Source: an uncultured SAR86 cluster bacterium
GTDB lineage: Bacteria; Pseudomonadota; Gammaproteobacteria; Magnimaribacterales; D2472
DNA: 64,000 nucleotides
Reading direction: 5' to 3'
Assembly (NCBI GenBank): GCA_943788365.1
Contig: CALSPZ010000001.1
Span: 678,263 to 742,262 of the forward strand
Shown here piece by piece: positions 3,432 to 49,383 of the stretch. The position numbers and the translations under genes are program-made. Numbering within the stretch: position 1 is the first letter of the stretch; every line of letters starts with the position of its first letter. The notes beneath the pieces are model-generated. The model was not told where the DNA came from. It worked only from the letters and a program-made list of their open reading frames with translations, and ran no database searches.

Positions 3432-4653
3432 AATACCCCTTTACCATTGAGCTAACAATATGTTTATCAACTTTTTTAATATCCTTAAGTGCTTCAAATG
3501 AGTCGTCGTAAAATGAGTTGTTGGAAAGCAAATTTATAATGAGATCTTTGTGATTTATTTCTTCTTTGAAAGAATCTAATTCATTGGCTTTCAGGCTATC
3601 TAGAAGGTTGTATATTTCGGAGTTTAGGGAAGATTTAAAGTGAGTATTTCGTAATTCTAGTAAAACATTTTGAGATTCTCTAACAATCATATTTAAGGCT
3701 TTTTCAGCTTCGATCCTTCTTTGCCCAAGGTTGTCTTGAGTTATTTTTTCAATATCATCTATTGTGTAAAGGTAAATCGTTTCAATATCTTTTACCCCTT
3801 CTTCAATATTTCTTGGAACCGCTAGGTCAATCAGAAGCAGTGGCTTATTTCCTCTCTTCATTAATGCTTTTTCAATCGCTCCTTTACCGATAATTGGTAA
3901 TTCTGCCAAAGCAGAGGCTATTACCACATCAGCTTTCTCTAGCTCAAAGTGCAATGATGATAATGGTGAAGATACAATTCCAAAAGAATCAGAAATGGTA
4001 ATTTCTTTAATGCTTCTATTAACTGATCTGATGTCTGTGATACCTTTGTTGTAAAGATTTTTAATAACATCTTGTGCAAGAGAGCCAGCTCCTATTACTA
4101 AGACTTTTTGATTAATTGGATTTTCAAAAATATTTTTTATTAATTTAAGTGAAAGGCCGCTTATTGACAGAGGATTTACACCAATATTTGTATTAGTTCG
4201 GACTTTTCTTACAACCTCTATTGCTTTATTGGCATATCTCTGGAGATTTGAATCCATAACTCCAATATTTTTCGAGACTGCAATTGCATTTTTATATTGA
4301 CCAAAAATTTCCTGTTCGCCTAACACCTGAGAATCGATGCCTGCAGCAACTTTACACATGTGTATAAATGCATCCTCATCTTGAAGAAAATAAAACTGTG
4401 AGGTGTTAATTTTATTTAGATTGAATAATTTAGAAACTTCATCAAAAAAGCTATTAATTACTCCTTTTTCGCCCAGTAAATATATTTCGCTTCTATTGCA
4501 AGTTGATAATCCAAAAAAGGAGATAATAGAATTATTAAATTTATCTTTTATCAAGCTATTGAGTAAAAATTGGTTAGACTCACTTATAATGAATCTTTCT
4601 CTTTCAGAAACATTAGAGGTTTTGTGATTTATGCCAAAGAGTTGTAATTCCAT
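3421..4653 (-). CDS. hemA: glutamyl-tRNA reductase
   Basis: N-terminus MELQLFGINHKT, catalytic-Cys motif LSTCNRSEIY, Rossmann motif VLVIGAGSLA. Upstream of prfA as in other gammaproteobacteria. Confidence 0.93.
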   Translation of the reverse strand: MELQLFGINHKTSNVSERERFIISESNQFLLNSLIKDKFNNSIISFFGLSTCNRSEIYLLGEKGVINSFFDEVSKLFNLNKINTSQFYFLQDEDAFIHMCKVAAGIDSQVLGEQEIFGQYKNAIAVSKNIGVMDSNLQRYANKAIEVVRKVRTNTNIGVNPLSISGLSLKLIKNIFENPINQKVLVIGAGSLAQDVIKNLYNKGITDIRSVNRSIKEITISDSFGIVSSPLSSLHFELEKADVVIASALAELPIIGKGAIEKALMKRGNKPLLLIDLAVPRNIEEGVKDIETIYLYTIDDIEKITQDNLGQRRIEAEKALNMIVRESQNVLLELRNTHFKSSLNSEIYNLLDSLKANELDSFKEEINHKDLIINLLSNNSFYDDSFEALKDIKKVDKHIVSSMVKGYFDA

Positions 4654-5140
4654 TAGTAAAAATTTATTTTTATTTTTATTGCTACCTTTTCTGTTTTCAT
4701 GTGTTGTAAATCCATCTTCATCTAAGCAAAAAATTTATACTGGTAAGTTTTATGTTGAAAACGCAAAAGTTGGCTCAACATTTAATACAAGCATTATTAA
4801 GCAAGGTAATGGGTTAATTATACAGGTAAGCAAGCCTTTTTTTGGTAATGTTTTAAATTTAACTATAAAGAGCAATGGATATATAGAATCAACTTCATCA
4901 GAAGATAATGTCTTTATTAATTCAAGCTATACGCCCAAGGATTACAAAAAAATTTATAACTGGTTGAATAACTGTCTTGACTCAACCAAGCTTTCTAATA
5001 ATGAAACAGCTATAGAGCCTCAAGAGTATCTATTTATACATAGTGAAAGTATTAGATTGGTATGCTCAAAGGGTAAAGATAAAATTTCTTTTGATATAAC
5101 AGATAGCAAATTTAAAATTAATGGGCATGTTCTAACTTAG
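4631..5140 (+). CDS. lolB: outer-membrane lipoprotein, LolB-like (lipoprotein receptor)
   Basis: Signal peptide with lipobox LFS-C (Cys codon at 4700), +2 residue Val. Sits in the conserved slot divergent from hemA and directly upstream of ispE. Sequence similarity to E. coli LolB is only weak by eye, so the call rests mostly on synteny and lipoprotein features. Confidence 0.6.
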   Translation: MPKSCNSISKNLFLFLLLPFLFSCVVNPSSSKQKIYTGKFYVENAKVGSTFNTSIIKQGNGLIIQVSKPFFGNVLNLTIKSNGYIESTSSEDNVFINSSYTPKDYKKIYNWLNNCLDSTKLSNNETAIEPQEYLFIHSESIRLVCSKGKDKISFDITDSKFKINGHVLT

Positions 5141-13880: not shown

Positions 13881-16163
13881 TTATGAAATTGTTTGAGCTT
13901 CCTCTTTTCTATCAAAAACTTCAATTTTATCTTTTGGTCTTATGTCTTTATAGTTTTTGATGCCCATTCCACACTCACTTCCATTCTTCACCTCTGAAAC
14001 ATCATCTTTAAATCTTCTTAGGGAATTCAGTTCTCCTTCGAAAATTACCACATCATCTCTTAAAACTCTAACAGGCTTATTTCTATTAACAGAGCCTTCA
14101 ACTACCATACAGCCTGCAACCTGACCGAATTTAGGAGAGTTAAATACTTCTAAAACTTCAGCTGTACCTATAATTTCTTCTCTAATAATAGGGTCAAGCA
14201 ATCCACTCATTCTAGCTTTAACATCATCAAGAAGCTCATATATGATGCTGTGGTAATTAAGTGGTATTGATTCTTCTTCAGCAATTTTTTTAGCTGTGTT
14301 ATCGGCCCGAACGTTAAATCCTAAAATAATCGCATCAGTTGCTAGAGCTAGATTTGCATCAGACTCAGAAATTCCTCCAACCCCACTTGATACAATTTTT
14401 ACTTTTGCTAAATCATTACCTAGGTCATGTAATGCGGCAATAATTGCTTCACATGTTCCACCTACATCAGTCTTAACAATTATATTTAAAACTTTTTTAG
14501 CATCTTGTCCAAATGATTCGAAAAGGTTGCCTGCAGATTCATCTTTTTGTTTTAAAAGCTTTCGTTCTTTTTCTCTATCAACTCTGTGCTCAACGATTTC
14601 TCTTGCTTGCTTATCATTCTTTACAACCTGAAATACATCACCAGCATTTGGAACACTATTTAACCCAAGCACCTCAATTGCAGCAGACGGGCCTGCAGAT
14701 TTTTCTTTTTTTCCATCACTTGTAGTAATGCTTTTTATTTTTCCTATTGAGTTACCTGCAGCAATAATATCGCCAGTTTTTAAGGTTCCATTTTGAACTA
14801 ATAATGTCGCAACAGAGCCTTTAAATTTGTCTAATTCAGACTCAACAACAACTCCTTGTGCAGGACCATCATATGATGCTTTAAGTTCAAGCAGTTCAGC
14901 TTCCAGAGAGACTGAATCTAATAATTTATCAACACCATCGCCTTTAAGGGCTGAAACAGGAATCATTTGAATATTTCCACCCCAGTCCTCTGGAACTAAG
15001 TCTTTAGCAGCAAGCTCACCTTTAACTTTTTCAGCATCAGCTCCAGCTAAATCCATTTTATTAATGGCAACTACAATAGAAACATTTGCGGCTTTTGCAT
15101 GATTTATTGCTTCTTCTGTTTGAGGTTTTATTCCATCATTAGCAGCAACAACCAAAATAACAATATCTGTAGTATTTGCCCCTCTTGCTCTCATTGATGA
15201 AAAAGCTGCATGGCCTGGAGTATCTATAAATGTAATTTTTCCTTTGGATGTCTCAACTTGATAGGCTCCTATGTGCTGAGTAATTCCTCCAGCTTCACCA
15301 TCAACTACCTTTGTTTCTCTAATATAATCTAGTAAAGTTGTTTTGCCATGGTCAACGTGTCCCATAACAGTTACAACAGGTGATCTTTGTGAAGGTTTAT
15401 CTTTATACTCAATAAGACTTGCGAAATCTTCTTCTAAGTCTTTTTCTTCTAAAGCGACACCTATATGGCCAATCTCCTCAACAACAAGAACTGCGGTTTC
15501 TTGATCAATTACATCATTTATTGTTGCAGGGACACCAAGCGCCATTAAGTTTTTAACAACAACGCCCCCTTTTACTGCCATAAGCTTTGCCAACTCGCCA
15601 ACTTGAATGGTTGAAGGTATTTGTATTTCTTTCTTTATAATCTCAGTAGGAGCTTCAAACTGATGGTCTCCATCTGACTTAAAGCTACCCTCTCTCCTTC
15701 TATAAGCATTCACAGCGCTAGATAACTGATCTTTTACATTAACTTTTTTTGCTGGTCTTTCAGGAGTTCTAGCTGCAGCTTTAAATTTTTCTCTTTTCTT
15801 CTGCTCTTCTTGTTTTAGTCTTGCTGCTTCCTTAAGTTGATCTTCTCTCTTTTTTTGTTGCTCTTTTAATTGCTCAGATGCTGCAGCTCTTTTAGCCTCA
15901 ATATTATCTGAGTAACTCTTAATAGGCTGACCGTCATTAGAAGATTTATTTTTAGAAGTTACAGTAATATTTCCAGATGACGTTACTGATTTAGATGCAG
16001 GCGCCTTGCCTCCCTTTAAGGACCTTAGTAATGCCTGCTTGTCAGAAGCAGTAATTTCATCAGAACTACTGGCATGTTTTAAACCAGCATTCTGCATTCT
16101 TTCAATAAGAGCAGTGTCTGAAATTTTTAATACTTTTGCAAAATCTTTTACTGTTAAAGCCAA
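13881..16163 (-). CDS. infB: translation initiation factor IF-2
   Basis: GTPase motifs GHVDHGKTTLLD, DTPGH, NKMD. Lys/Glu-rich N-terminal region; nusA-infB synteny. Confidence 0.96.
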   Translation of the reverse strand: MALTVKDFAKVLKISDTALIERMQNAGLKHASSSDEITASDKQALLRSLKGGKAPASKSVTSSGNITVTSKNKSSNDGQPIKSYSDNIEAKRAAASEQLKEQQKKREDQLKEAARLKQEEQKKREKFKAAARTPERPAKKVNVKDQLSSAVNAYRRREGSFKSDGDHQFEAPTEIIKKEIQIPSTIQVGELAKLMAVKGGVVVKNLMALGVPATINDVIDQETAVLVVEEIGHIGVALEEKDLEEDFASLIEYKDKPSQRSPVVTVMGHVDHGKTTLLDYIRETKVVDGEAGGITQHIGAYQVETSKGKITFIDTPGHAAFSSMRARGANTTDIVILVVAANDGIKPQTEEAINHAKAANVSIVVAINKMDLAGADAEKVKGELAAKDLVPEDWGGNIQMIPVSALKGDGVDKLLDSVSLEAELLELKASYDGPAQGVVVESELDKFKGSVATLLVQNGTLKTGDIIAAGNSIGKIKSITTSDGKKEKSAGPSAAIEVLGLNSVPNAGDVFQVVKNDKQAREIVEHRVDREKERKLLKQKDESAGNLFESFGQDAKKVLNIIVKTDVGGTCEAIIAALHDLGNDLAKVKIVSSGVGGISESDANLALATDAIILGFNVRADNTAKKIAEEESIPLNYHSIIYELLDDVKARMSGLLDPIIREEIIGTAEVLEVFNSPKFGQVAGCMVVEGSVNRNKPVRVLRDDVVIFEGELNSLRRFKDDVSEVKNGSECGMGIKNYKDIRPKDKIEVFDRKEEAQTIS

Positions 16164-35179: not shown

Positions 35180-35590
35180 ATGATTGAAAAAACACAGTTT
35201 GTATCGCCCGTTAAAAGAATAGCTGCAACTATTTATGATATTTTTTTGCTTTTAGGTGTCTGGTTTGGAGTTGGCTCCATAGCCTTATGGTTAAACAATA
35301 GTGAAATTCTTCATCCTGGAGTAGGTCTAAGTATTGTAATAATTAGTGCTTGGATATTTTATTCTTTCTTTTGGATGAGGGGTGGAAAGACCCTTGGTAT
35401 GGCTGTTTGGAATATAGAAATCTACTCTTTAAAAAGTAATAATATTACGTTTATGCAAGCTACGCTGAGATTTTATGTCAACTTATTAATATTTATCTTG
35501 ATGGGAGTCCCCCTACTTCAGATATATTTTTCAAAAGATAGGTTGGCTATAAATGACAGGATTTCTATGACTAGTTTAAGGTTAATTTAG
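35180..35590 (+). CDS. RDD family membrane protein
   Basis: 136 aa and 3 TM segments. RDD-like pattern (KRIAATIYDIFLL..., GKTLGMAVWNIEI). Confidence 0.7.
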   Translation: MIEKTQFVSPVKRIAATIYDIFLLLGVWFGVGSIALWLNNSEILHPGVGLSIVIISAWIFYSFFWMRGGKTLGMAVWNIEIYSLKSNNITFMQATLRFYVNLLIFILMGVPLLQIYFSKDRLAINDRISMTSLRLI

Positions 35591-36646
35591 CCTTCTATAC
35601 ATAATAAAGCTGGACATTAGCAGGATAAAAGCAGGAAGACATACACCTATCAATAAAAACATATTAAATGAGATAGCAATACTTATAGTAAGATCTTGGA
35701 TAATTTGATACACGAAAGCTCCAAGAACTGATATTACAATTTTGGATCCAGGCGATGAATCCCTCAAAGATCCAAATATAAAATAACCAAAAAATAATAT
35801 TAATATAATTATAGAAATTGGCATAAATAAAAATTTATAAAACTTTTTTTCAATGTGTGCTTTAAAAATTCTATCTTGCTTTCCAATATCTCCAGATAAT
35901 AACTGATTTAAATTATAGCTTTCTCTCATTGTAAGAGTTTCAATATCACGCAGGCTCTTTGAAATGATTATTGGAAAATTAAAATCTTTGCTAAGTGACC
36001 TATTGTTAGATGTTGATGATAAATTTTTATTTATAGTTAAAGAGGTTGAATTATCAAAATTTATTTCAGAATTTTTTATTTCAGCTGACAATGATGAGAG
36101 AGCTAGATTTATTTTGTTATCTTGAAGTTCAAAATACTGAACTCCAAAAATCTGATCTCCAATTTTTCTTTCAAAATTTAGAAACTTATTACCGTCAATC
36201 AACCAAACTGATTCTTCTTGGGCATTGTTAATGCTTGAAGTCATGATTGTTTTATTGATGACGGCTTTATTTCCAATATCTTTAAATATAAATTCACTGC
36301 CAAACATAAAAAAGAAAGCAATACTTAATGGTCCTATAGAGGTTAGAAGCACTATTTTTAATGGAGATATTCCACTAGATCTCAAAACATTTAAATTACC
36401 TTCTTCTTGAGACAATCCCATTGCAATCATGAAGCCCAATAGACATGAGCCCTCTATAAAAGCATAGGCTCTATCAGGAATAGATAATAAAGAAAAATTA
36501 AAGGCTTTTATGAAAGTGTAGGTTAAGGATAAATCTTCAAACTCCCCAATGAGATTGAATAAAAAATCTACAAAAATAAATAGCCCGAATACAAAACCAG
36601 TTATTACAAGTGATCTCTTGATAAGGTAATTGATATAGATGCTCAT
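35582..36646 (-). CDS. lptG: LPS export ABC transporter permease LptG
   Basis: YjgP/YjgQ-type topology (3 TM, periplasmic beta-jellyroll region, 3 TM). Second gene of a pair divergent from pepA, as in E. coli and Pseudomonas. Confidence 0.85.
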   Translation of the reverse strand: MSIYINYLIKRSLVITGFVFGLFIFVDFLFNLIGEFEDLSLTYTFIKAFNFSLLSIPDRAYAFIEGSCLLGFMIAMGLSQEEGNLNVLRSSGISPLKIVLLTSIGPLSIAFFFMFGSEFIFKDIGNKAVINKTIMTSSINNAQEESVWLIDGNKFLNFERKIGDQIFGVQYFELQDNKINLALSSLSAEIKNSEINFDNSTSLTINKNLSSTSNNRSLSKDFNFPIIISKSLRDIETLTMRESYNLNQLLSGDIGKQDRIFKAHIEKKFYKFLFMPISIIILILFFGYFIFGSLRDSSPGSKIVISVLGAFVYQIIQDLTISIAISFNMFLLIGVCLPAFILLMSSFIMYRRLN

Positions 36647-36647
36647 T

Positions 36648-37796
36648 TTAAAAAAAGGCCCACAAAATAAATAAAATTAAAATTGTTGCTAGAATTAATC
36701 TATAGAATAATTTTTTAGTAATTTCATTAAAAATTAAAATAAAAAATCTATCTCTTAAATACAATAAAATTGCAAAAAATATAAAAATTAAATGAATAAA
36801 AATTAAATTAAATTCTGTTTGGTTATTTTGAGCGATATGATCTCTGCCAAGCAATAAAAGACTTAAATACAATATATAAATAAGCATTCCAGGTAAGATT
36901 ACCGATAGCCTGCCCTGCCTTGGTTCTACTTTTCCTATATAGATTGCAATAACCATCAAAACTATAATTGTAATAGATAATGAAATGCTCCATTGAAATC
37001 CTAATGGGTCATCAATATTTATTGAGCTAAATATATTTTCAAAACTTGTTACAGCATCAGTTTGGTTATTAGCTAATGGAAATTTAAAATTTTTAAAACT
37101 TGAAATTATCTTTGGATCATCTGAGAAAATGCCTGCAGTTAATGATCCATCTTTAAACAAGAGCTCATAATCTAGCTGCGAGCTTGAAATGCTCAGTATA
37201 TCTGATGAAATTAAAATAGAATCTTTTCCGTCATCATTAAAAAAAATTACATTTTTTAAGTAGGCTTCATTATTCTCACTAACTGTTATAAAACTTTTAG
37301 ACCCTTTAATACTAAAGATTTCTCCCGGAGAAAGAGATGCTATTTGCTCTTCAAAAGTATCTACTTTTAAAAGCTCATTTGATACTTGCTTGCTAACTGG
37401 AGCTATGTAGAGGCTCAGAATAAGCGTAAAGACCATATAAATAATAGCTTGAGGGAAAATAAATTTTATTAATGTGATGGGTGAAATGCCAGTAGAAAAA
37501 TAAGCATATATTTCCCTGTCAGCATAAAGTCTACTAACGGTGATTAATATGCCAATAAAAAAAGAAAGTGGAAGAAGGAGAGATATAAAATCAGGAAACC
37601 TTAAAAATACTGCATATAAAATTATAGATGGATCAATCAGTCCCTCAGAAGCTTGCTCAAAATATGATACAAATCTTGATCCAACTACCAATAGAAATAA
37701 TATTATTAATATAGATGTGGTAGATTTAAAAACTTCCAAATTAAAACTTTTTGAAAGAATATTATTTTTAAACATGCCTTGAGAACTGTGATGCAT
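36648..37796 (-). CDS. lptF: LPS export ABC transporter permease LptF
   Basis: Same family and topology, adjacent to and divergent from pepA. Start may be the second ATG at 37775. Confidence 0.85.
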   Translation of the reverse strand: MHHSSQGMFKNNILSKSFNLEVFKSTTSILIILFLLVVGSRFVSYFEQASEGLIDPSIILYAVFLRFPDFISLLLPLSFFIGILITVSRLYADREIYAYFSTGISPITLIKFIFPQAIIYMVFTLILSLYIAPVSKQVSNELLKVDTFEEQIASLSPGEIFSIKGSKSFITVSENNEAYLKNVIFFNDDGKDSILISSDILSISSSQLDYELLFKDGSLTAGIFSDDPKIISSFKNFKFPLANNQTDAVTSFENIFSSINIDDPLGFQWSISLSITIIVLMVIAIYIGKVEPRQGRLSVILPGMLIYILYLSLLLLGRDHIAQNNQTEFNLIFIHLIFIFFAILLYLRDRFFILIFNEITKKLFYRLILATILILFILWAFF

Positions 37797-37842
37797 TACA
37801 ATAAATATCTTATCAGTAAATACTATAAATAGGAGAGCTTAA

Positions 37843-39357
37843 ATGCCATATAAAATCTTAAATAACATAGCGGTTAAAGATACTTCATCAGTTGATTTAA
37901 CTTCTGCCAAAACTTCACTTCTTGTTATTACAATTAATAAAGATACTTTAAAAGATGCAGCTTTTAAAGCCCTAGATAAAGCATCTAAGGGGTTTCTTAA
38001 GAATTCAATATCTTCTCATCTTAAAGATGAGGGCTCTTCGTTACTTCTTCCTAAGGTTAATGGCATTGAGGCGGAAAGTATTATGATGGTTAAGGCTTTG
38101 AATGCTGATGCTCCATTGCATAAATGGTTAGGCTCATTAAAATCTATAACCAAACAAGCAAATAAACTAAAAGCAAAAGATATTTCATTACTTTTAAGCT
38201 CTTCCTTGCCTGAAGGTAAAGATATTTTCTGGATGATAGAAAATTCTGCTAAAACTATTGAATCTAATGCCTACATCTTTACAGAAACAAAGAATAAGAC
38301 AGTGAAAAATCCTACGCTTAAAAAATTAGTTATATATGGTAATGACTTTTCTGGAGCCAACCTAAAGAAAGCTAAAGATTCTGCAAAAAAAGGTTTCGCA
38401 ATTGGTGAGGGAGTTAATACTGCTAAGTACCTTGGCGACCTTCCTGCAAATCATGCCACTCCAAAAATTATTGAAAAGAAAGTGAAAGCTATGACTAAAG
38501 ACTTTCCAAACTTAAAAGTGAAATCATTTAATGAAAAAGATTTAGCAAAAATGGGCATGGGATCATACCTAAGCGTTTCAAAAGGTAGTGATGAACCTCC
38601 AAGAATGATGGTTATAGAATACAAGGGTGGAAAAGCAACAGAAAAACCAATTGCGCTTGTAGGTAAAGGTATAACTTTTGATACTGGGGGCGTATCCTTA
38701 AAACCACCTCAAGGAATGGATGAGATGAAATGGGATATGTGCGGAGCAGCAACTGTTTTTGGAGTTATGTCCACATTAGCAAGGCTTAATGCAAAAGTGA
38801 ATGTTGTGGGTATTATGGCTTGTGCAGAAAATATGTGTTCTGCAAAAGCTACAAAACCAGGAGATGTAGTTACATCTATGTCAGGACAAACAATTGAAAT
38901 ACTTAATACTGATGCAGAAGGAAGATTGGTCTTGTGTGATGCTTTGACGTATGTTGGGAAATATAAACCAAAATATGTAATTGATATGGCAACTTTAACT
39001 GGTGCTGTTGTTGTTGCTCTTGGCAGACATGCAAGCGGAGTTATGGCAAATGATCAACATTTAGCCGATATGATAATTGCCTCTGGAGAAGAGTCAGGTG
39101 ATAGAGCTTGGCAATTACCTCTTTGGGATGAGCATCAGTCATGCACTAATACAAGCTATGCAGATCTTGCAAATATTGGTGGAGGTCGTGAAGCTGGAAC
39201 TATTCATGCCGCTGCGTTTTTATCTAAATTTACAACTGACTACAAATGGGCGCATATAGATATTGCAGCAACAGCATCTCATAGCACCCCTGTTAAGGAG
39301 GGAACTGGAAGACCTGTTCCGTTAATTAGTGAGCTTTTATTAAGTAAGAAACTATAA
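37843..39357 (+). CDS. pepA: leucyl aminopeptidase (M17)
   Basis: M17 signature NTDAEGRLVLCD, VGKGITFDTGG; good SD (AGGAGAG). Confidence 0.95.
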   Translation: MPYKILNNIAVKDTSSVDLTSAKTSLLVITINKDTLKDAAFKALDKASKGFLKNSISSHLKDEGSSLLLPKVNGIEAESIMMVKALNADAPLHKWLGSLKSITKQANKLKAKDISLLLSSSLPEGKDIFWMIENSAKTIESNAYIFTETKNKTVKNPTLKKLVIYGNDFSGANLKKAKDSAKKGFAIGEGVNTAKYLGDLPANHATPKIIEKKVKAMTKDFPNLKVKSFNEKDLAKMGMGSYLSVSKGSDEPPRMMVIEYKGGKATEKPIALVGKGITFDTGGVSLKPPQGMDEMKWDMCGAATVFGVMSTLARLNAKVNVVGIMACAENMCSAKATKPGDVVTSMSGQTIEILNTDAEGRLVLCDALTYVGKYKPKYVIDMATLTGAVVVALGRHASGVMANDQHLADMIIASGEESGDRAWQLPLWDEHQSCTNTSYADLANIGGGREAGTIHAAAFLSKFTTDYKWAHIDIAATASHSTPVKEGTGRPVPLISELLLSKKL

Positions 39358-39381
39358 AAAAAATCTTCGCAAAGCAGCATT

Positions 39382-41601
39382 ATGGATAAAAAGTATTACC
39401 CCATTGAAATAGAGGAAAAATGGGCAAAGATTTGGGCTAAAAGAGGCATTAATGATTCTAATGCAACTGAGTCCTTTGCTCAGGTAATACCACCGCCAAA
39501 TGTTACTGGAACACTTCATATGGGACATAGCTTCCAATATGCGATCATGGATTTTTATACAAGATATAACCATATGTCAGGTAAAGATTCTTACTGGCAA
39601 GTTGGCGCTGATCATGCAGGTATAGCTACCCAAATGGTTGTTGAAAACAATTTAGCAAGAGAAGATATCTCAAGAAAGGATCTTGGGAGAGAGAAGTTCC
39701 TTGATGAGACTTGGAAATGGAAAGAATTCTCTGAAGAAAAAATAACCTCTCAAATAAAAAGACTTGGCTGTTCAGTAGATTGGGATAAGTATCGATTCAC
39801 TCTAGATGATGGGTTTAATAAAGCAGTAATAAAAGCTTTTGTTGACCTTCATAGAAAAAACAAAATTTACAGAGGGTATAGACTAGTTAATTGGGATCCA
39901 TCACTAAAGACTGCTGTGTCTGATTTAGAGGTTGTCAGGCAAGAAAAGAAAGGCTTATTGTGGCATATAAAATATCCTATAGAAGGAACTGGTGAGTATG
40001 TTGAAATCGCTACCACAAGACCTGAGACTATGTTTGGAGATATGGCTATAGCAGTTAATCCAAATGATGAAAGGTACAAGCCTATTGTTGGTAAATATGT
40101 AAATTTGCCATTTGTAGGAAGAAGAATACCCATCATTGCAGATGAATATGTAGATATGGAATTCGGAACTGGGTGTCTTAAAATTACTCCAGGTCATGAT
40201 TTTAATGATTATGAAATTGGTAAGAAATATTCACTTTATGAGCTTAATGGCACAGTTCATACCTCCGATAAACAAGAGGATTTTTCTCCTATAAGTATAT
40301 TTAATGATGATGCTTGGAGTAATGAAAATGTCCCAGAACCATTCAGTAATCTTGATAGATTTAAAGTTAGAAAACTAGTCATTCAAGAACTGCAAAATAT
40401 TGGCTTATTGGTTAAAGAGGAGCCACATGATATTAGCGTCCCAAGAGGAGAAAGATCAAATATAGTTATAGAGCCTAGGTTGAGCTATCAATGGTATGTA
40501 AAGACATCTGAAATGGCTGCAAGGGCAAATGATGCAGTTAATAATGGAGACATAAAATTTCATCCAAGCAATTGGGATAAAACCTATTTCAATTGGATGA
40601 ATAACATTGAAGACTGGTGCATTAGCAGACAAATCTGGTGGGGGCATAGAATACCTGCTTGGTATGATAATGAAGGCAATGTTTATGTTGGTGAAGATGA
40701 GAATAATGTAAGGGAACAATACAATCTTGGAGATGTTGAGCTTAATCAAGATGAAGATGTTTTAGATACTTGGTTTTCATCAAGCTTATGGCCTTTTGCC
40801 TCTTTAGGATGGCCTGAAAAAACTGATGAATTTAAAAAGCATTTTCCAACCTCATTACTTGTTACTGGTTTTGATATTATTTTTTTCTGGGTAGCGAGAA
40901 TGATGATGATGAGTCTAGAATTCACTGATCAGATTCCTTTTAAAGATGTCTATGTGACTGGATTAATCAGAGATGAGAATGGCCAAAAAATGTCTAAGTC
41001 CAAAGGAAATGTTATTGATCCATTGGATTTAATTTATGGAATTTCTCAAGAAGATCTTGTTAAGAAAAGGACTAGCAATCTTATGCAAGAAAGCACGGCT
41101 GAAAAAATTGCTAAAAAAACAAGAAAGCAATTTCCTAATGGCATTAATTCCTATGGATCAGATGCATTAAGAATGACTTTTTACTCATTAGCTACGCATA
41201 CTAAAGACATTAGTTTTGAACTAGGAAGGCTAAAGGGTTATAGAAATTTTTGCACGAAAATTTGGAATGCGGCAAGGTTTATTAATGGCTATCCAGAAAG
41301 CAATGATGTCTTTAAGGCGGAGAATGATAATGATGCTTTGATATTAGAAGAGTTTAAAAAATCGAAGCTTAAAATTGCTCAAAATATTGCAGACTATAGG
41401 CTTGATTATGCTATTAATGAAATATATGAATTCTTCTGGAGCAAATTTTGCGATGTCTATATTGAAGAATGTAAAAAAAGTGGAGATACAAAAAATCTTA
41501 GGCCGCTTTTGAAAGAAATACTAGTTATGATGCACCCTTTCGCGCCTTTCATAACCGAAGAGATACATAGTTTATTATTTGATAGTACTATAATTAGGTG
41601 A
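39382..41601 (+). CDS. valS: valine--tRNA ligase, C-terminally short (739 aa)
   Basis: HIGH (GTLHMGHSF), editing-domain motifs (TTRPETMFGD, GTGCLKITPGHDFND) and KMSKS are present. The protein ends 14 residues after the conserved HPFAPFITEEI segment. Confidence 0.9.
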   Translation: MDKKYYPIEIEEKWAKIWAKRGINDSNATESFAQVIPPPNVTGTLHMGHSFQYAIMDFYTRYNHMSGKDSYWQVGADHAGIATQMVVENNLAREDISRKDLGREKFLDETWKWKEFSEEKITSQIKRLGCSVDWDKYRFTLDDGFNKAVIKAFVDLHRKNKIYRGYRLVNWDPSLKTAVSDLEVVRQEKKGLLWHIKYPIEGTGEYVEIATTRPETMFGDMAIAVNPNDERYKPIVGKYVNLPFVGRRIPIIADEYVDMEFGTGCLKITPGHDFNDYEIGKKYSLYELNGTVHTSDKQEDFSPISIFNDDAWSNENVPEPFSNLDRFKVRKLVIQELQNIGLLVKEEPHDISVPRGERSNIVIEPRLSYQWYVKTSEMAARANDAVNNGDIKFHPSNWDKTYFNWMNNIEDWCISRQIWWGHRIPAWYDNEGNVYVGEDENNVREQYNLGDVELNQDEDVLDTWFSSSLWPFASLGWPEKTDEFKKHFPTSLLVTGFDIIFFWVARMMMMSLEFTDQIPFKDVYVTGLIRDENGQKMSKSKGNVIDPLDLIYGISQEDLVKKRTSNLMQESTAEKIAKKTRKQFPNGINSYGSDALRMTFYSLATHTKDISFELGRLKGYRNFCTKIWNAARFINGYPESNDVFKAENDNDALILEEFKKSKLKIAQNIADYRLDYAINEIYEFFWSKFCDVYIEECKKSGDTKNLRPLLKEILVMMHPFAPFITEEIHSLLFDSTIIR

Positions 41602-41613
41602 GATAAAGCTCCT

Positions 41614-42378
41614 ATGGCTATTATTAAAGCATCTAATCTTGTTAAAAAATATAAAAATCCTGAAGAAAAATTAAAGACTTTTAACGCAGTAGATGGAGTT
41701 TCTTTGTCTATTAAAACTGGTGATATCTTTGGAATACTAGGCCCTAATGGAGCCGGCAAGACCTCAACTCTTGAAATGCTTGAAGGTCTTAAGGATATAG
41801 ATGAAGGCTCGGCTTTAATTAATTCAATTGATGTTACAAACAATCCATATGAAATAAAAAAAATAATAGGGGTTCAACTTCAAGCTAATGAATATTTTGA
41901 TAATATGACATTGACTGAACTGCTTAAATTATTTATAGCATTGTACAGCTCTTCGAATGATCCGCTGGAATTACTTAAAAGAGTAAAGCTGCAAGATAAA
42001 GCAAATGCTAATGCAAATGAGTTGTCTGGGGGCCAAAAGCAAAGATTTTCAATAGCCTCAGCATTAGTCAATAATCCTTTAGTTTTATTTCTTGATGAAC
42101 CAACAACGGGTTTAGACCCGCAAGCAAAGAGAAATATTTGGGATCTTATCCTGGAACTAAATGGAGCTGGCATGACCATAGTTCTGACTACTCACAATAT
42201 GGAAGAGGCGGAGTTTTTATGCCATAGGATAGCAATTATGGATTATGGAAAAATTATTGCAGAGGATTCGCCTAAGAACTTAATTATGAAACATGCTCCT
42301 AATAAAATTAGAGAAATTAAATATGGAAATATGGAAGATGTATTTATAGCCTTAACAGGTCACGGACTAAGAGATTAG
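41614..42378 (+). CDS. ABC transporter ATP-binding protein (ABC-2/DrrA-like exporter type)
   Basis: Walker A GPNGAGKTS, signature LSGGQKQR, Walker B LFLDEPTTGLD, H-loop TTHNMEE. Confidence 0.9.
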   Translation: MAIIKASNLVKKYKNPEEKLKTFNAVDGVSLSIKTGDIFGILGPNGAGKTSTLEMLEGLKDIDEGSALINSIDVTNNPYEIKKIIGVQLQANEYFDNMTLTELLKLFIALYSSSNDPLELLKRVKLQDKANANANELSGGQKQRFSIASALVNNPLVLFLDEPTTGLDPQAKRNIWDLILELNGAGMTIVLTTHNMEEAEFLCHRIAIMDYGKIIAEDSPKNLIMKHAPNKIREIKYGNMEDVFIALTGHGLRD

Positions 42379-42379
42379 G

Positions 42380-43468
42380 ATGCTTAGAAAACCTCAATTA
42401 TATTTAACGAAAGTTTTTATTCAGATATTTCTAAGAAATAAGCAATATATTTTTTTTAGTCTCTTATTACCTGTGGTTATTTTAGGGATTGTGGGCTTGA
42501 ATGATGGAGAAAGAGATCCAGTAGACATTGGTCTTGTTGACTACTCAAACTCGAATATTTCTAAAGAGTTTATTGAAAAACTTTCTAACAATGCATTATT
42601 TAATATCAATCAGTCTGATGAGGTGAATCTTAGAAATAAACTTATTAAAGGTGAGCTAACGTTAATACTTGTTCTTCCTAATGATATGGGGAATACAAAT
42701 AAAACAACAAATATAAAATTATTAGCAGACAAATCACAAATTAATTTTATTGAAGCCATAAAACCAATTATCAATCAGACGCTCATAAGCCTTGAGAGAG
42801 AAATTTCTGAAAAAATACCTATGTTTAGTCTTGAAATAAAAGACATTAAATCAAGAACTCAAACTTACTTAGATTTCTTATTGCCTGGCATTATGGCATT
42901 TATGCTTATGAATCTTAGTATTGCTGGAAGTGGATTTAATGTTGTTGAATTTAGAAGAAGAGGAATACTTAAAAGATTATTTGTAACTCCAATTAAACCA
43001 ATAGATTTTGTCTCTGCAATAGTTATTGCTCGTATGGTTATTGTCCTTGGTCAGTTAAGTATTATTTTTAGTTTTGCCTTTTTCTTTTTAGATGTAAATA
43101 TTGTTGGAAGTATTTCACACTTATTTTTCGTTATTATGCTAAGCGTATTAATGTTTTTAACTTTAGGTTTTTCAATTGGGAGCTTGGCTAAAACCCAAGA
43201 ATCAGTTGGTGTGATAGCTTCTATTTTTATTTATCCTCAGATAGTTATGTCAGGAGTTTTTTTTCCAATAGAAACCTTGCCAGAATTCATTCAGCCATTT
43301 TCAGAAATATTACCCCTTTCAATAGTTGCAGATGCCATGAGATCAATTTCTAGTGATGGCCTTTCATTTTTAGCTGTATATAAGAATATGATTGGTATAA
43401 GTATATGGATTGTTATAGGTACCTTTGTTTCAACGAAGCTATTTGTATGGAAAGAAGTTGCAGGGTAA
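42380..43468 (+). CDS. ABC-2 family transporter permease
   Basis: N-terminal TM, about 130-aa extracytoplasmic region, then 5 TM segments. Starts 1 nt after the ATPase stop. Confidence 0.82.
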   Translation: MLRKPQLYLTKVFIQIFLRNKQYIFFSLLLPVVILGIVGLNDGERDPVDIGLVDYSNSNISKEFIEKLSNNALFNINQSDEVNLRNKLIKGELTLILVLPNDMGNTNKTTNIKLLADKSQINFIEAIKPIINQTLISLEREISEKIPMFSLEIKDIKSRTQTYLDFLLPGIMAFMLMNLSIAGSGFNVVEFRRRGILKRLFVTPIKPIDFVSAIVIARMVIVLGQLSIIFSFAFFFLDVNIVGSISHLFFVIMLSVLMFLTLGFSIGSLAKTQESVGVIASIFIYPQIVMSGVFFPIETLPEFIQPFSEILPLSIVADAMRSISSDGLSFLAVYKNMIGISIWIVIGTFVSTKLFVWKEVAG

Positions 43469-44099: not shown

Positions 44100-44579
44100 A
44101 TGAAAAAAATAACCGACTTTGTTGTAAAAGATAATAATTTAGATGCTGTAGATCTCTCTATCTATGATGGAAAAACACTTCTAATAGTCAATGTGGCTAG
44201 TGAATGTGGTCTTACTTATCATTATGAAGGATTGCAGGAACTTTATAATGAATTTAACTCTCATGGACTAGAGATATTAGCTTTTCCAAGCAACCAATTT
44301 GGTGCTCAAGAACCTGGGAGTAACGATGAAATTAAATTTTTCTGTACTGAAAAATATAATGTAACCTTCCCTCTTTTTAATAAAATAGATGTTAATGGCC
44401 CTAATGAGGACCCTTTATATACTTTTTTAAAACACATCAGTTCAGAAAAATCTAATACAAAAGATATTGAATGGAATTTCACAAAATTTCTTTTTAATAA
44501 AAACTCTGATTTATATAAAAGGTATGATCCGAGAGTAGAGCCCTCTGATCTCATTAAAGATATTCAATCAATTTTATAA
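44100..44579 (+). CDS. glutathione peroxidase family protein (Cys type), copy 1
   Basis: VNVASECGLT (peroxidatic Cys encoded by TGT), FPSNQFGAQEPG, WNFTKFL. Confidence 0.92.
   Translation: MKKITDFVVKDNNLDAVDLSIYDGKTLLIVNVASECGLTYHYEGLQELYNEFNSHGLEILAFPSNQFGAQEPGSNDEIKFFCTEKYNVTFPLFNKIDVNGPNEDPLYTFLKHISSEKSNTKDIEWNFTKFLFNKNSDLYKRYDPRVEPSDLIKDIQSIL
44334..44432. repeat. 99-nt tract identical to 44828-44926 (inside gpx copy 1)
   Basis: Compared base by base: aaatttttctgtactg...acttttttaaaa is 99/99 identical at an offset of 494 nt. Flanking paralogous sequence is clearly diverged. Confidence 0.95.
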
Positions 44580-44593
44580 ATAAAAAAATTATC

Positions 44594-45076
44594 ATGAAAA
44601 ATATATACAACATAACCGTAAAAGATGCAGAGCTTAATGAAATTAATTTAGGAAATTACAAAGGTAAAACTCTATTAATTGTTAATGTGGCAAGCCATTG
44701 TGGATTGACGTATCAATATGAAGGTCTTCAGAATCTGTCTAATAAATTTAAAAATGATGATTTTGAAATTCTAGCTTTTCCATGCAATCAATTTAAAGCA
44801 CAAGAACCTGGAACTAATGATGAGATCAAATTTTTCTGTACTGAAAAATATAATGTAACCTTCCCTCTTTTTAATAAAATAGATGTTAATGGCCCTAATG
44901 AGGACCCTTTATATACTTTTTTAAAAGATTCTAAGCGTGGATTCTTGGGTTATAAGCCAATTGAGTGGAATTTTGCAAAATTTTTAATAAATGCTGATGG
45001 TGAAGTTGTAAAGAGATTTCTGCCCTCTACTAAGCCAAATAAAATTGAAAAAAAGATCAGCAAATTATTAGGCTAG
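44594..45076 (+). CDS. glutathione peroxidase family protein (Cys type), copy 2
   Basis: VNVASHCGLT (TGT Cys), FPCNQFKAQEPG, WNFAKFL. Tandem paralog 14 nt after copy 1. Confidence 0.92.
   Translation: MKNIYNITVKDAELNEINLGNYKGKTLLIVNVASHCGLTYQYEGLQNLSNKFKNDDFEILAFPCNQFKAQEPGTNDEIKFFCTEKYNVTFPLFNKIDVNGPNEDPLYTFLKDSKRGFLGYKPIEWNFAKFLINADGEVVKRFLPSTKPNKIEKKISKLLG
44828..44926. repeat. 99-nt tract identical to 44334-44432 (inside gpx copy 2)
   Basis: See the partner repeat. Confidence 0.95.
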
Positions 45077-45508
45077 AGTTTTTGACATTAAGAGGGCATC
45101 TTCTTTTTGCTCTCCAGTGTAATAGTTCTCTCGGACTGCATCTTTTTTAAAACCAAATTTTTCATAAAATAAAATAGCTTTCGCATTACTTATTCTTACT
45201 TCAAGATATATATTTTTAATGCCCATCACTTTGCATTGATTAATAATGGTATTAAGCAATATAGATCCAGCACCTTTTTTTTGAAATTTTTGTGTTACAG
45301 CTATATTTAAGAGGTGTGCTTCAGGCTTAATTGGGGAATAGATAGCAAAGCCTGCTATTTCATTTTTATGAGTACAAATTAAACCAAAGTGGCCAACTTC
45401 AAAAGAAGATTTAAAATTTGTATAAGTCCATGGTGTTGGATTTGTTAGTTTTTCGATTTCATATGACTCTTTTAGATGCTCTTCGTTAAGATTTGAAACT
45501 TTGAACAT
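45068..45508 (-). CDS. rimI: ribosomal-protein-alanine N-acetyltransferase
   Basis: 146-aa GNAT (acetyl-CoA site QKFQKKGAGSILL). Lies immediately downstream of a holD-like gene, as in E. coli holD-rimI. Confidence 0.8.
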   Translation of the reverse strand: MFKVSNLNEEHLKESYEIEKLTNPTPWTYTNFKSSFEVGHFGLICTHKNEIAGFAIYSPIKPEAHLLNIAVTQKFQKKGAGSILLNTIINQCKVMGIKNIYLEVRISNAKAILFYEKFGFKKDAVRENYYTGEQKEDALLMSKTLA

Positions 45509-45943
45509 TCAAAGATTGAGCAAAGTCTTTATTGAAGTCCATAATTGCTTCTTCTTATGTGGATTGGCTGCAAGTTCGTCAATATTAGCTGAGTTTATGA
45601 CTGGAATTTTTGTGAAGACTTTAATTTCATTATCTGTAAAATTGATAATCAATCTCGAATTTTTATCAACTTCATTGTTTAGATTTTTTGCGCTATCTGC
45701 AGAACTAGATTGACCGAGTGATTGTCCATTTGTAAGAGTTGTTGAATTCATTATCGCCATAATTAATTTTTTCTGGTTATCATCATGCTCTTCAAAAGAC
45801 TCATTCAATAAAACAGTTATGTTTTGAATTTTATAAATATGAATTGGGGTATGCCTTGATTTATTTTCTACTGATCTTAAAGAAAATCTTGTAATACCCA
45901 GCTCTTTTAATATAAGGTTAGTTTTTAAAGATGCAGTTATCAT
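45509..45943 (-). CDS. holD: DNA polymerase III psi subunit (divergent HolD)
   Basis: 144 aa. The N-terminal LKELGITRFSLRS resembles E. coli HolD LQQLGITQWSLRR. The C-terminal ELAANPHKKKQLWTSI resembles DLRANPTARAALWQQI (E. coli sequence from memory). Abuts rimI with no spacer. Confidence 0.65.
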   Translation of the reverse strand: MITASLKTNLILKELGITRFSLRSVENKSRHTPIHIYKIQNITVLLNESFEEHDDNQKKLIMAIMNSTTLTNGQSLGQSSSADSAKNLNNEVDKNSRLIINFTDNEIKVFTKIPVINSANIDELAANPHKKKQLWTSIKTLLNL

Positions 45944-48426: not shown

Positions 48427-49383
48427 TTAACTCTTATGAATATGAATAGTTTTATTTTTATATGTTATGTAGCCTCCAGGCTGATCATTGTCAGACCTGC
48501 TCCAGCTAACAATTGATTTTGGACCAGGTCTAGATTGCAAAAAAGTTTTGAGAATTTCTTCAATTATTTTCTTATTGGGCATAGCTATATCATTTTTCTT
48601 TATGGAGGACCGAATTATCTCAATGGCTATTTCTCTCTCAACTGATTTCAAGCTTTCAATTGATATTGATTCTGAAATAAGATTTCCGTATGCAGAATGA
48701 AATAATTCATTAAAAATTTTTAGCTTTACATCGATTGAATTAGAGGTGCTACTCAACCTATTTGCAACTTTATTCCAGCGATCATTTGCTAATGGCAATA
48801 CTTTATTTCTAATAAAGTTTCTATCTTGGTCATTTGTAAAATTTGATGTATCTTCTACGAATTCTAGGCTATTTGAGGAAGCATAAGCCTGTAAATCAGC
48901 TTTGCTGTATGAAAGAAATGGTCTTATTAGAAATCCTTTACCTAAAACTCTTTTTTCCTGAAGGCCTCTGATACCATCTATTCCAGTACCCCTAAATAAT
49001 CTCAATAAAACTGTTTCAGCAACATCATCTTGATGATGCGCAGTCAATATTTGCTCTTCATTATCAATTATATTCTCAAATATTTTATACCTTTCCCCTC
49101 TGGCAGCAGACTCTAAACCACCTCCGCTCTTGATAATTTCAGCTGAAGAGACATGAAGTTTAATTCCAGTTTTTTTACAAAAATTTCTACAATGGTTTTC
49201 CCATAACTTACTTTGATCATTTAAATTATGATTAATATGAATTGCTTCTAGGTCAATTTCATTATTTTTTGATAATTCATAAAAAGTATGGAGTAGAACT
49301 GAAGAATCGATTCCTCCACTATATGCAATAAATACCTTTTTATTTAAATTTATTTTATCAAGTAAAGGTTGAGCATTCTTCAT
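48427..49383 (-). CDS. tilS: tRNA(Ile)-lysidine synthase, short form (318 aa)
   Basis: PP-loop SGGIDSSVLL, HINHNL, TAHHQDDVAETVLLRLFRG. No recognisable TilS C-terminal (PPW-containing) domain; accA-tilS synteny. Confidence 0.88.
   Translation of the reverse strand: MKNAQPLLDKINLNKKVFIAYSGGIDSSVLLHTFYELSKNNEIDLEAIHINHNLNDQSKLWENHCRNFCKKTGIKLHVSSAEIIKSGGGLESAARGERYKIFENIIDNEEQILTAHHQDDVAETVLLRLFRGTGIDGIRGLQEKRVLGKGFLIRPFLSYSKADLQAYASSNSLEFVEDTSNFTNDQDRNFIRNKVLPLANDRWNKVANRLSSTSNSIDVKLKIFNELFHSAYGNLISESISIESLKSVEREIAIEIIRSSIKKNDIAMPNKKIIEEILKTFLQSRPGPKSIVSWSRSDNDQPGGYITYKNKTIHIHKS

Follow-up and report, generated by a model that had tools for sequence, protein, structure and literature searches.

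A short valyl-tRNA synthetase conserved across SAR86 probably functions without the C-terminal domains of the canonical bacterial enzyme

The closest described relatives of the enzyme discussed here are the canonical bacterial valyl-tRNA synthetases (ValRS) of Thermus thermophilus (structures 1GAX/1IVS, 862 amino acids, aa) and Escherichia coli (ValS, 951 aa). In the Thermus protein the helix bundle presumably ends near residue 700, to be followed by an anticodon-stem-binding domain and then by a coiled coil extending to residue 862. The gene in question, valS, lies at 39382..41601 on the plus strand of a 64,000-nucleotide stretch of DNA from an uncultured SAR86 cluster bacterium (GenBank assembly GCA_943788365.1, contig CALSPZ010000001.1, positions 678,263 to 742,262; the whole stretch is called the window below), i.e., from a SAR86-clade gammaproteobacterium with a guanine-plus-cytosine (GC) content of ~33% and ~94% coding DNA. 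According to the open reading frame (ORF) list, NCBIfam and Pfam, it encodes a bacterial-type valine-tRNA ligase of 739 aa that is without the C-terminal ~180 residues. This protein is 40% identical to the canonical form, with which it shares the Rossmann catalytic core, the CP1 editing domain, the KMSKS signature, the stem-contact fold and the helix bundle, and it has the gammaproteobacterial insert after KMSKS. In contrast to the canonical form, it lacks everything past approximately Thermus residue 700, bears three loop deletions in the bundle and carries a 16-aa insertion in the editing domain. Considering its conservation, the purifying selection acting on it and its predicted structure, it is likely to be a lineage-wide, functional and self-sufficient minimised ValRS.

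Fukai and co-workers (2003) reportedly engineered a Thermus ValRS with no arm to clamp A20 and the G19-C56 pair of the tRNA elbow, at the price of a ~500-fold loss of kcat/KM. The SAR86 form differs from that mutant in being natural, conserved and under selection, and in additionally lacking the preceding domain. Archaeal-type or alternative ValRSs are also without the PF10458 coiled coil, but they keep a different C-terminal domain and are ~800 aa long (PRK13208 and NF000540; model lengths 801 and 827). Natural domain losses among class Ia synthetases include the short MetRS without the Trbp111-like C-terminal domain and the LeuRS of Mycoplasma mobile without CP1, and appended tRNA-binding or editing modules are dispensable in some lineages, mostly those with small genomes. 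These losses, however, concern other enzymes and other modules than those of the SAR86 ValRS. The architecture reported in this work is not known to have been described in any free-living bacterium.

Domain content and predicted structure of the 739-aa ValRS

By score and by motifs the 739-aa protein is a bacterial-type ValRS, not an archaeal one. It scores well above the curated cut-offs of the equivalog models TIGR00422 and PRK05729 (1001.5 versus 704 bits for one and 903.3 versus 612.1 for the other), and below those of the archaeal-type models PRK13208 (491.6 versus 738) and alt_ValS, NF000540 (300.7 versus 900). The matches to the two bacterial models are nevertheless incomplete, covering only positions 2-683 of 860 in PRK05729 and 1-699 of 863 in TIGR00422. 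In Pfam, tRNA-synt_1 is found at residues 14-612, overlapped by weaker matches to tRNA-synt_1g and to a LeuRS-type editing domain, and Anticodon_1 at residues 651-729, where only positions 1-87 of the 148 in the profile are matched. PF10458, the valyl ‘tRNA binding arm’, has no match in the window's ValRS, nor in the proteins of the two other SAR86 loci scanned for it (L006 and L008). The controls behaved differently, as two full-length gammaproteobacterial relatives (L009 and L010) and the ValRS of SAR11 (L053) all show Anticodon_1 over positions 1-146 of 148 together with PF10458. The profiles thus bear out the reading of the initial annotation, namely that complete C-terminal domains are not present. 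The fact that SAR11, a streamlined relative, retains the arm means that small genome size alone does not explain its loss.

Upstream of the missing part, the HIGH, editing-domain and KMSKS motifs, described as intact from the outset, are indeed so. The HIGH signature takes the form H46-M-G-H49 (39517..39528, plus strand) and is invariant in alignments A2 and A3; in A4, an alignment of 80 sequences, G48 and H49 do not vary and H46 hardly does. KMSKS occupies residues 536-540 (40987..41001, plus strand), in invariant columns. The CP1 editing domain spans residues ~191-349 (39952..40428, plus strand), the part to which the structures of the isolated Thermus editing domain (1wka and 1wk9) align; TTRPET and HDFND are conserved in it, the latter at residues 272-276 with its Asp pair, D273 and D276, in invariant columns. 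Within this domain lies the SAR86-specific insertion of 16 aa (YELNGTVHTSDKQEDF, residues 286-301, 40237..40284, plus strand), which brings the distance between flanking anchors to 28 aa, as opposed to 12 aa in 73 of 76 representatives, and which is predicted to fold as a beta-hairpin (strands at 286-288 and 291-293 in the AlphaFold2, AF2, model). The insertion might compensate for lost tRNA contacts.

The helix-bundle anticodon-binding domain is complete, at residues 589-732 (41146..41577, plus strand). In the alignment to the Thermus enzyme, residues 2-551 of the window's protein correspond to Thermus 4-543 and residues 589-732 to Thermus 544-694, the last pair being 732 with 694. With 145 aa, where the median is 159, the domain is the shortest bundle in the 80-sequence comparison, owing to three loop deletions of 12, 10 and 5 residues that are common to all SAR86 sequences. 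The bundle residues conserved throughout ValRSs are kept (D594, K626, E695, K698, P719 and P722), as are the nearly invariant ones (G592, R597, F623, W628, N629 and C690).

What follows the bundle is only the seven-residue unstructured tail FDSTIIR (41578..41598, plus strand, delimited in alignment A2), and the C-terminal peptide of the product ends ...EEIHSLLFDSTIIR. SAR86 proteins stop at an S/T-I-I/M motif, where full-length enzymes go on with ‘MLxxYP...’ into the next domain (alignment A2). Beyond residue 733, SAR86 has six residues and the 76 full-length representatives have a median of 181 and a minimum of 121; all non-SAR86 relatives have 121-198 aa more. The early stop announced in the initial annotation is therefore real when held against the profiles, but the missing piece amounts to ~160-190 residues rather than the ‘about 200’ proposed there, and the stop comes 11 codons after the conserved HPFAPFITEEI segment and not 14.

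The AF2 model built on the 80-sequence alignment places the end of the protein just past the last helix of the bundle. It has a mean predicted local distance difference test score (pLDDT) of 94.0 and a predicted template modelling score (pTM) of 0.91, and superimposes on 1gax_A with a template modelling (TM) score of 0.87 when normalised to the query and 0.75 when normalised to the longer target (root-mean-square deviation 2.9 Å). Its C-terminal helices run from 593 to 602, 614 to 635, 649 to 670, 674 to 700, 706 to 717 and 722 to 732, with ten-residue block means of pLDDT between 88 and 98 across residues 590-730, and then give way to a short disordered tail, where pLDDT falls below 50 at residues 737-739. 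A previous model, from an alignment of SAR86 sequences only (18 sequences, 82-93% identity), was unusable (pLDDT 36) and was replaced by this one. If the domain limits that we take for the Thermus enzyme are right, the deletion would remove exactly the anticodon-stem-binding domain and the coiled coil.

Conservation of the short valS in SAR86

The valS frame closes with a TGA at 41599-41601 on the plus strand (ORF list), and after a spacer of 12 nucleotides (gataaagctcct, 41602..41613, plus strand) an ORF of the ABC_tran family (MAIIKASNLVKKY...) begins at 41614 in the same frame, just as the initial annotation had it. This arrangement recalls an artefact or a recoding event, be it an assembly join, a rearrangement, a hidden frameshift, or a read-through of the TGA that fuses ValRS to the ATPase of the ATP-binding cassette (ABC) transporter, the more so as the ABC start is also in frame with valS in L001-L003, three of the eight SAR86 loci fetched for comparison (L001-L008, 4-22 kb, holding valS with flanks of ~±10 kb, or ±6 kb in some). 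We give such explanations next to no chance. The identical 739-aa protein is encoded on 37 contigs, the longest of 1.26 Mb, from five independent sources (NCBI, JGI/IMG, Logan, ENA and Tara); the valS genes of five SAR86 species genomes, the complete CP097973.1 among them, share one aligned end point, their stops being TAG, TAA, TAA, TAA and TGA, and orthologues with TAA or TAG end there without an ABC gene downstream, which rules out the read-through fusion; no downstream frame encodes the missing module; and TGA closes 7 of the 54 large ORFs of the window, where long conserved genes stay whole when table 11, the standard bacterial code, is applied. The join at 41.6 kb, one of the options considered initially, is thus refuted, by the contigs as much as by the other SAR86 stops and downstream genes. 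The antisense ORF at 41457-41843 (128 aa, TTG start) overlaps two conserved genes on the other strand and is taken for noise here too.

Downstream of valS the loci agree little with one another. L001-L003 have the ABC pair, as the window does; L004 has no such pair, and a convergent GNAT acetyltransferase gene (4249-4721) lies 14 nucleotides after its valS; L006 and L007 have an unrelated ORF in another frame; and in L005 and L008 ~5.8 kb of other genes intervene. The region 3′ of valS is an indel hot spot. Since valS ends at the same residue in front of different downstream genes across SAR86, its truncation is older than, and independent of, the junction with the ABC gene. The contig of L007 (CAJVZM010000096.1, 4.2 kb) is binned as ‘uncultured Flavobacteriaceae’ and carries a SAR86-type pepA-valS pair, the valS product being 741 aa long and 74% identical to that of the window; this contig is probably mis-binned.

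Length conservation extends to the limits of the SAR86 sampled here, and no full-length valS is found at this locus in sister genomes, whose homologues measure 738-741 aa. The best 120 homologues of the window's protein are all 738-739 aa long, at 82-93% identity. The most divergent SAR86 orthologue fetched, L008, is 71% identical to it and comes from a complete genome (CP097973.1); its own best 120 homologues are 738-741 aa long, at 71-99% identity, apart from one fragment of 654 aa. The homologues from both searches are labelled SAR86 cluster bacterium or Gammaproteobacteria by their sources.

Between the window and other SAR86 species, non-synonymous divergence (dN) is 0.12-0.22 and synonymous divergence (dS) is saturated (1.8-2.6 or undefined), giving a dN/dS of ~0.05-0.13 for valS, and the helix bundle taken alone gives 0.066 against L008. 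Such values show strong purifying selection on the short gene. Its upstream neighbourhood, with lptG and lptF on the minus strand and pepA on the plus strand (35582..39357 in the window), is conserved in SAR86, and pepA also precedes valS in full-length gammaproteobacterial relatives; valS thus lies in its ancestral position, as the orthologous housekeeping gene. All this bears on a further explanation, in which SAR86 has a second, complete ValRS, for example of the archaeal type, and the short gene is a relic or serves another role. Archaeal-type ValRSs do occur in some bacteria, as the very existence of the PRK13208 and alt_ValS models attests. Yet strong purifying selection along the whole gene, intact catalytic, editing and anticodon motifs, the ancestral neighbourhood, equivalog scores far over the cut-offs and the persistence of the short form across lineages with saturated synonymous sites make a redundant or decaying copy very improbable.

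Outside SAR86 the full length is the rule. The 17 non-SAR86 relatives (at most 56% identity) are 876-990 aa long and have coiled-coil-like ends, with the exception of L017. This is the sole short non-SAR86 valS among the loci fetched (L017 6001-8233), of 744 aa with a GC-rich nonsense tail, in a metagenome-assembled genome from long reads; it is probably a frameshift error rather than another naturally shortened enzyme. The best 150 representatives of clusters at 50% identity, a search with no SAR86 representative at the top (best match 53% identical) and hence informative only on the length of relatives, are nearly all 857-1235 aa long, and the intact ValRSs among them reach well past the end of the query. 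Short cluster representatives proved to be fragments (P0165, P0190, P0194 and P0241), frameshifted GC-rich sequences (P0162 and P0252) or, for the rest, eroded AT-rich ones. Two AT-rich, endosymbiont-like ValRSs, P0245 (779 aa) and P0235 (839 aa), also have shortened or degenerate C-terminal regions; they keep ~90-130 low-complexity residues past the bundle, whereas the SAR86 protein ends at most seven residues past the last bundle helix and is well conserved in the rest.

The missing module and recognition of tRNA-Val

Natural synthetases may be split or assisted in trans, as with the alpha and beta subunits of Aquifex LeuRS, the split AlaRS of Nanoarchaeum, and cofactors of the Arc1p or Trbp111 type. 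It is therefore conceivable that the anticodon-stem-binding and coiled-coil module is encoded at another site of the SAR86 genome, by a gene of its own, and acts in trans, and the position of the truncation, right behind the last bundle helix, speaks for such a split. However, when the C-terminal 215 aa of 15 full-length relatives were run by tblastn against the window and the eight SAR86 loci, the sole match was the HPFxPFITEE helix that they have in common with the end of valS. Likewise, a profile of the missing module (181 positions, built from 74 sequences, with a positive control at E=3e-47) gave no match below E~3, whichever frame of the 64-kb window or of L001-L008 was read, and literature searches of incomplete coverage found no description of a split ValRS, of a truncated ValRS or of any SAR86 synthetase feature. 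A split enzyme, another of the options raised by the initial annotation, thus finds no support in the sequences searched, and we regard it as improbable. The option of a naturally minimised ValRS, by contrast, is strongly supported by conservation throughout SAR86, purifying selection and predicted structure.

How such a minimised enzyme could work is suggested by the identity elements of its substrate, which for valine are A35, C36 and A73 as major and G20 and G45 as minor determinants (Giege and Eriani 2023, PMC9976931). The ancestor of the sampled SAR86 lineages would have deleted everything past the helix-bundle domain. When the protein is aligned to Thermus ValRS, this loss comprises the ‘tRNA-binding arm’, a C-terminal coiled coil, and the anticodon-stem-binding domain in front of it; the three loops within the bundle would have been trimmed too. 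Besides the catalytic Rossmann core and the CP1 editing domain, the enzyme would have kept its stem-contact fold and its helix bundle, the latter being the part expected to read the major identity bases A35 and C36. As the anticodon-reading, acceptor-end and editing parts are intact, we infer a self-sufficient minimal ValRS, in which the 739-aa protein would charge and proofread tRNA-Val alone, recognising it through the anticodon and the acceptor end (A73) only. It would forgo contacts with the anticodon stem and also with the D/T-loop elbow (position 20 and G19-C56). For this to suffice in vivo, either slower charging of tRNA-Val would have to be tolerated or some feature would have to compensate, for which the insertion in the editing domain, an altered tRNA-Val or a further protein are candidates.

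Two considerations weigh against a minimised enzyme that is sufficient by itself. Deletion of the coiled coil alone from Thermus ValRS, in the 2003 work of Fukai et al., is reported to raise the KM for tRNA 28-fold and to lower kcat 19-fold; an uncompensated deletion should therefore be costly. Moreover, there is no increase in positive charge in the helix bundle to hint at compensation, its charge being -2 against a median of -3.

It is hard to refrain from asking whether SAR86 has gone further and rewired its recognition of tRNA-Val, so that it no longer needs the elbow clamp or the anticodon-stem contacts, which bacterial-type ValRSs otherwise have almost without exception. This might have come about through the 16-aa hairpin, through a co-evolved tRNA-Val (at positions 19, 20 and 56, or in the anticodon stem) or through an unrelated tRNA-binding protein acting in trans. 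Neither the window, with 10 kb added past each of its ends, nor L001-L008 contain a SAR86 tRNA-Val. We hold such rewiring to be possible, if rather doubtful; were it true, the SAR86 protein would be the smallest naturally functional, editing-competent ValRS of the bacterial type, and a natural template for the design of minimal class Ia synthetases.

Neighbouring genes and implications for SAR86

The ABC transporter next to valS is encoded by genes for an ATPase (254 aa) and an ABC-2 permease (362 aa), which together form a variable insert 3′ of valS (41614..43468, plus strand, identified with Pfam). Scans for promoters, terminators and Rfam families gave no terminator-like site, no promoter-like site above chance and no Rfam match at the junction between valS and the ATPase gene, which makes co-transcription of the two probable in this species. 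The transporter itself is an unrelated, variable neighbour and stays outside the story of the ValRS. On the other side, the gap between pepA and valS measures 24 nucleotides only (39358-39381) and hence leaves no holC, the gene for the chi subunit of DNA polymerase III, at the position where it sits in E. coli; a gene for the psi subunit (holD), adjoining rimI, is present at 45068-45943 on the minus strand. Further along, tandem glutathione-peroxidase paralogues (159 and 160 aa) lie at 44100-45076 in the window; the pair is conserved in L001-L004 and one copy was found in L006.

Other translation genes of the window and its surroundings also deserve attention. TilS, at 48427-49383 on the minus strand, is 318 aa long and only its PP-loop domain was detected, so that its shortness, raised earlier as a hint of a genome-wide trend, is confirmed. 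Its length nevertheless matches the solved short form of Aquifex aeolicus (317 aa, PDB 1WY5) and not the 433-aa protein of E. coli; being a form already known, the short TilS lends weak support to such a trend and does not establish it alone. IF2, the translation initiation factor, is 760 aa long (13881-16163, minus strand), compared with 890 aa in E. coli, which would fit a trimming of N-terminal regions in this genome. In addition, the gatCAB amidotransferase genes lie just past the left end of the window (L084 12992-16148), which suggests an indirect route to Asn-tRNA or Gln-tRNA in SAR86; this would be another economy in its set of synthetases.

In the surface ocean, SAR86 ranks with the most abundant clades of bacteria. 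If its sole ValRS works without the last two domains, the arm, which is treated as a hallmark of bacterial ValRS, would be dispensable in vivo in a free-living organism, and genome streamlining would trim domains of core translation enzymes and not just whole genes. There would be a practical side to this as well, given that PF10458 has served as a universal single-copy marker (PMC3663571): its systematic absence from SAR86 genomes would slightly bias completeness estimates and marker-based trees. The SAR86 ValRS would also be a naturally minimal scaffold on which to study the way class Ia synthetases hold their tRNAs.

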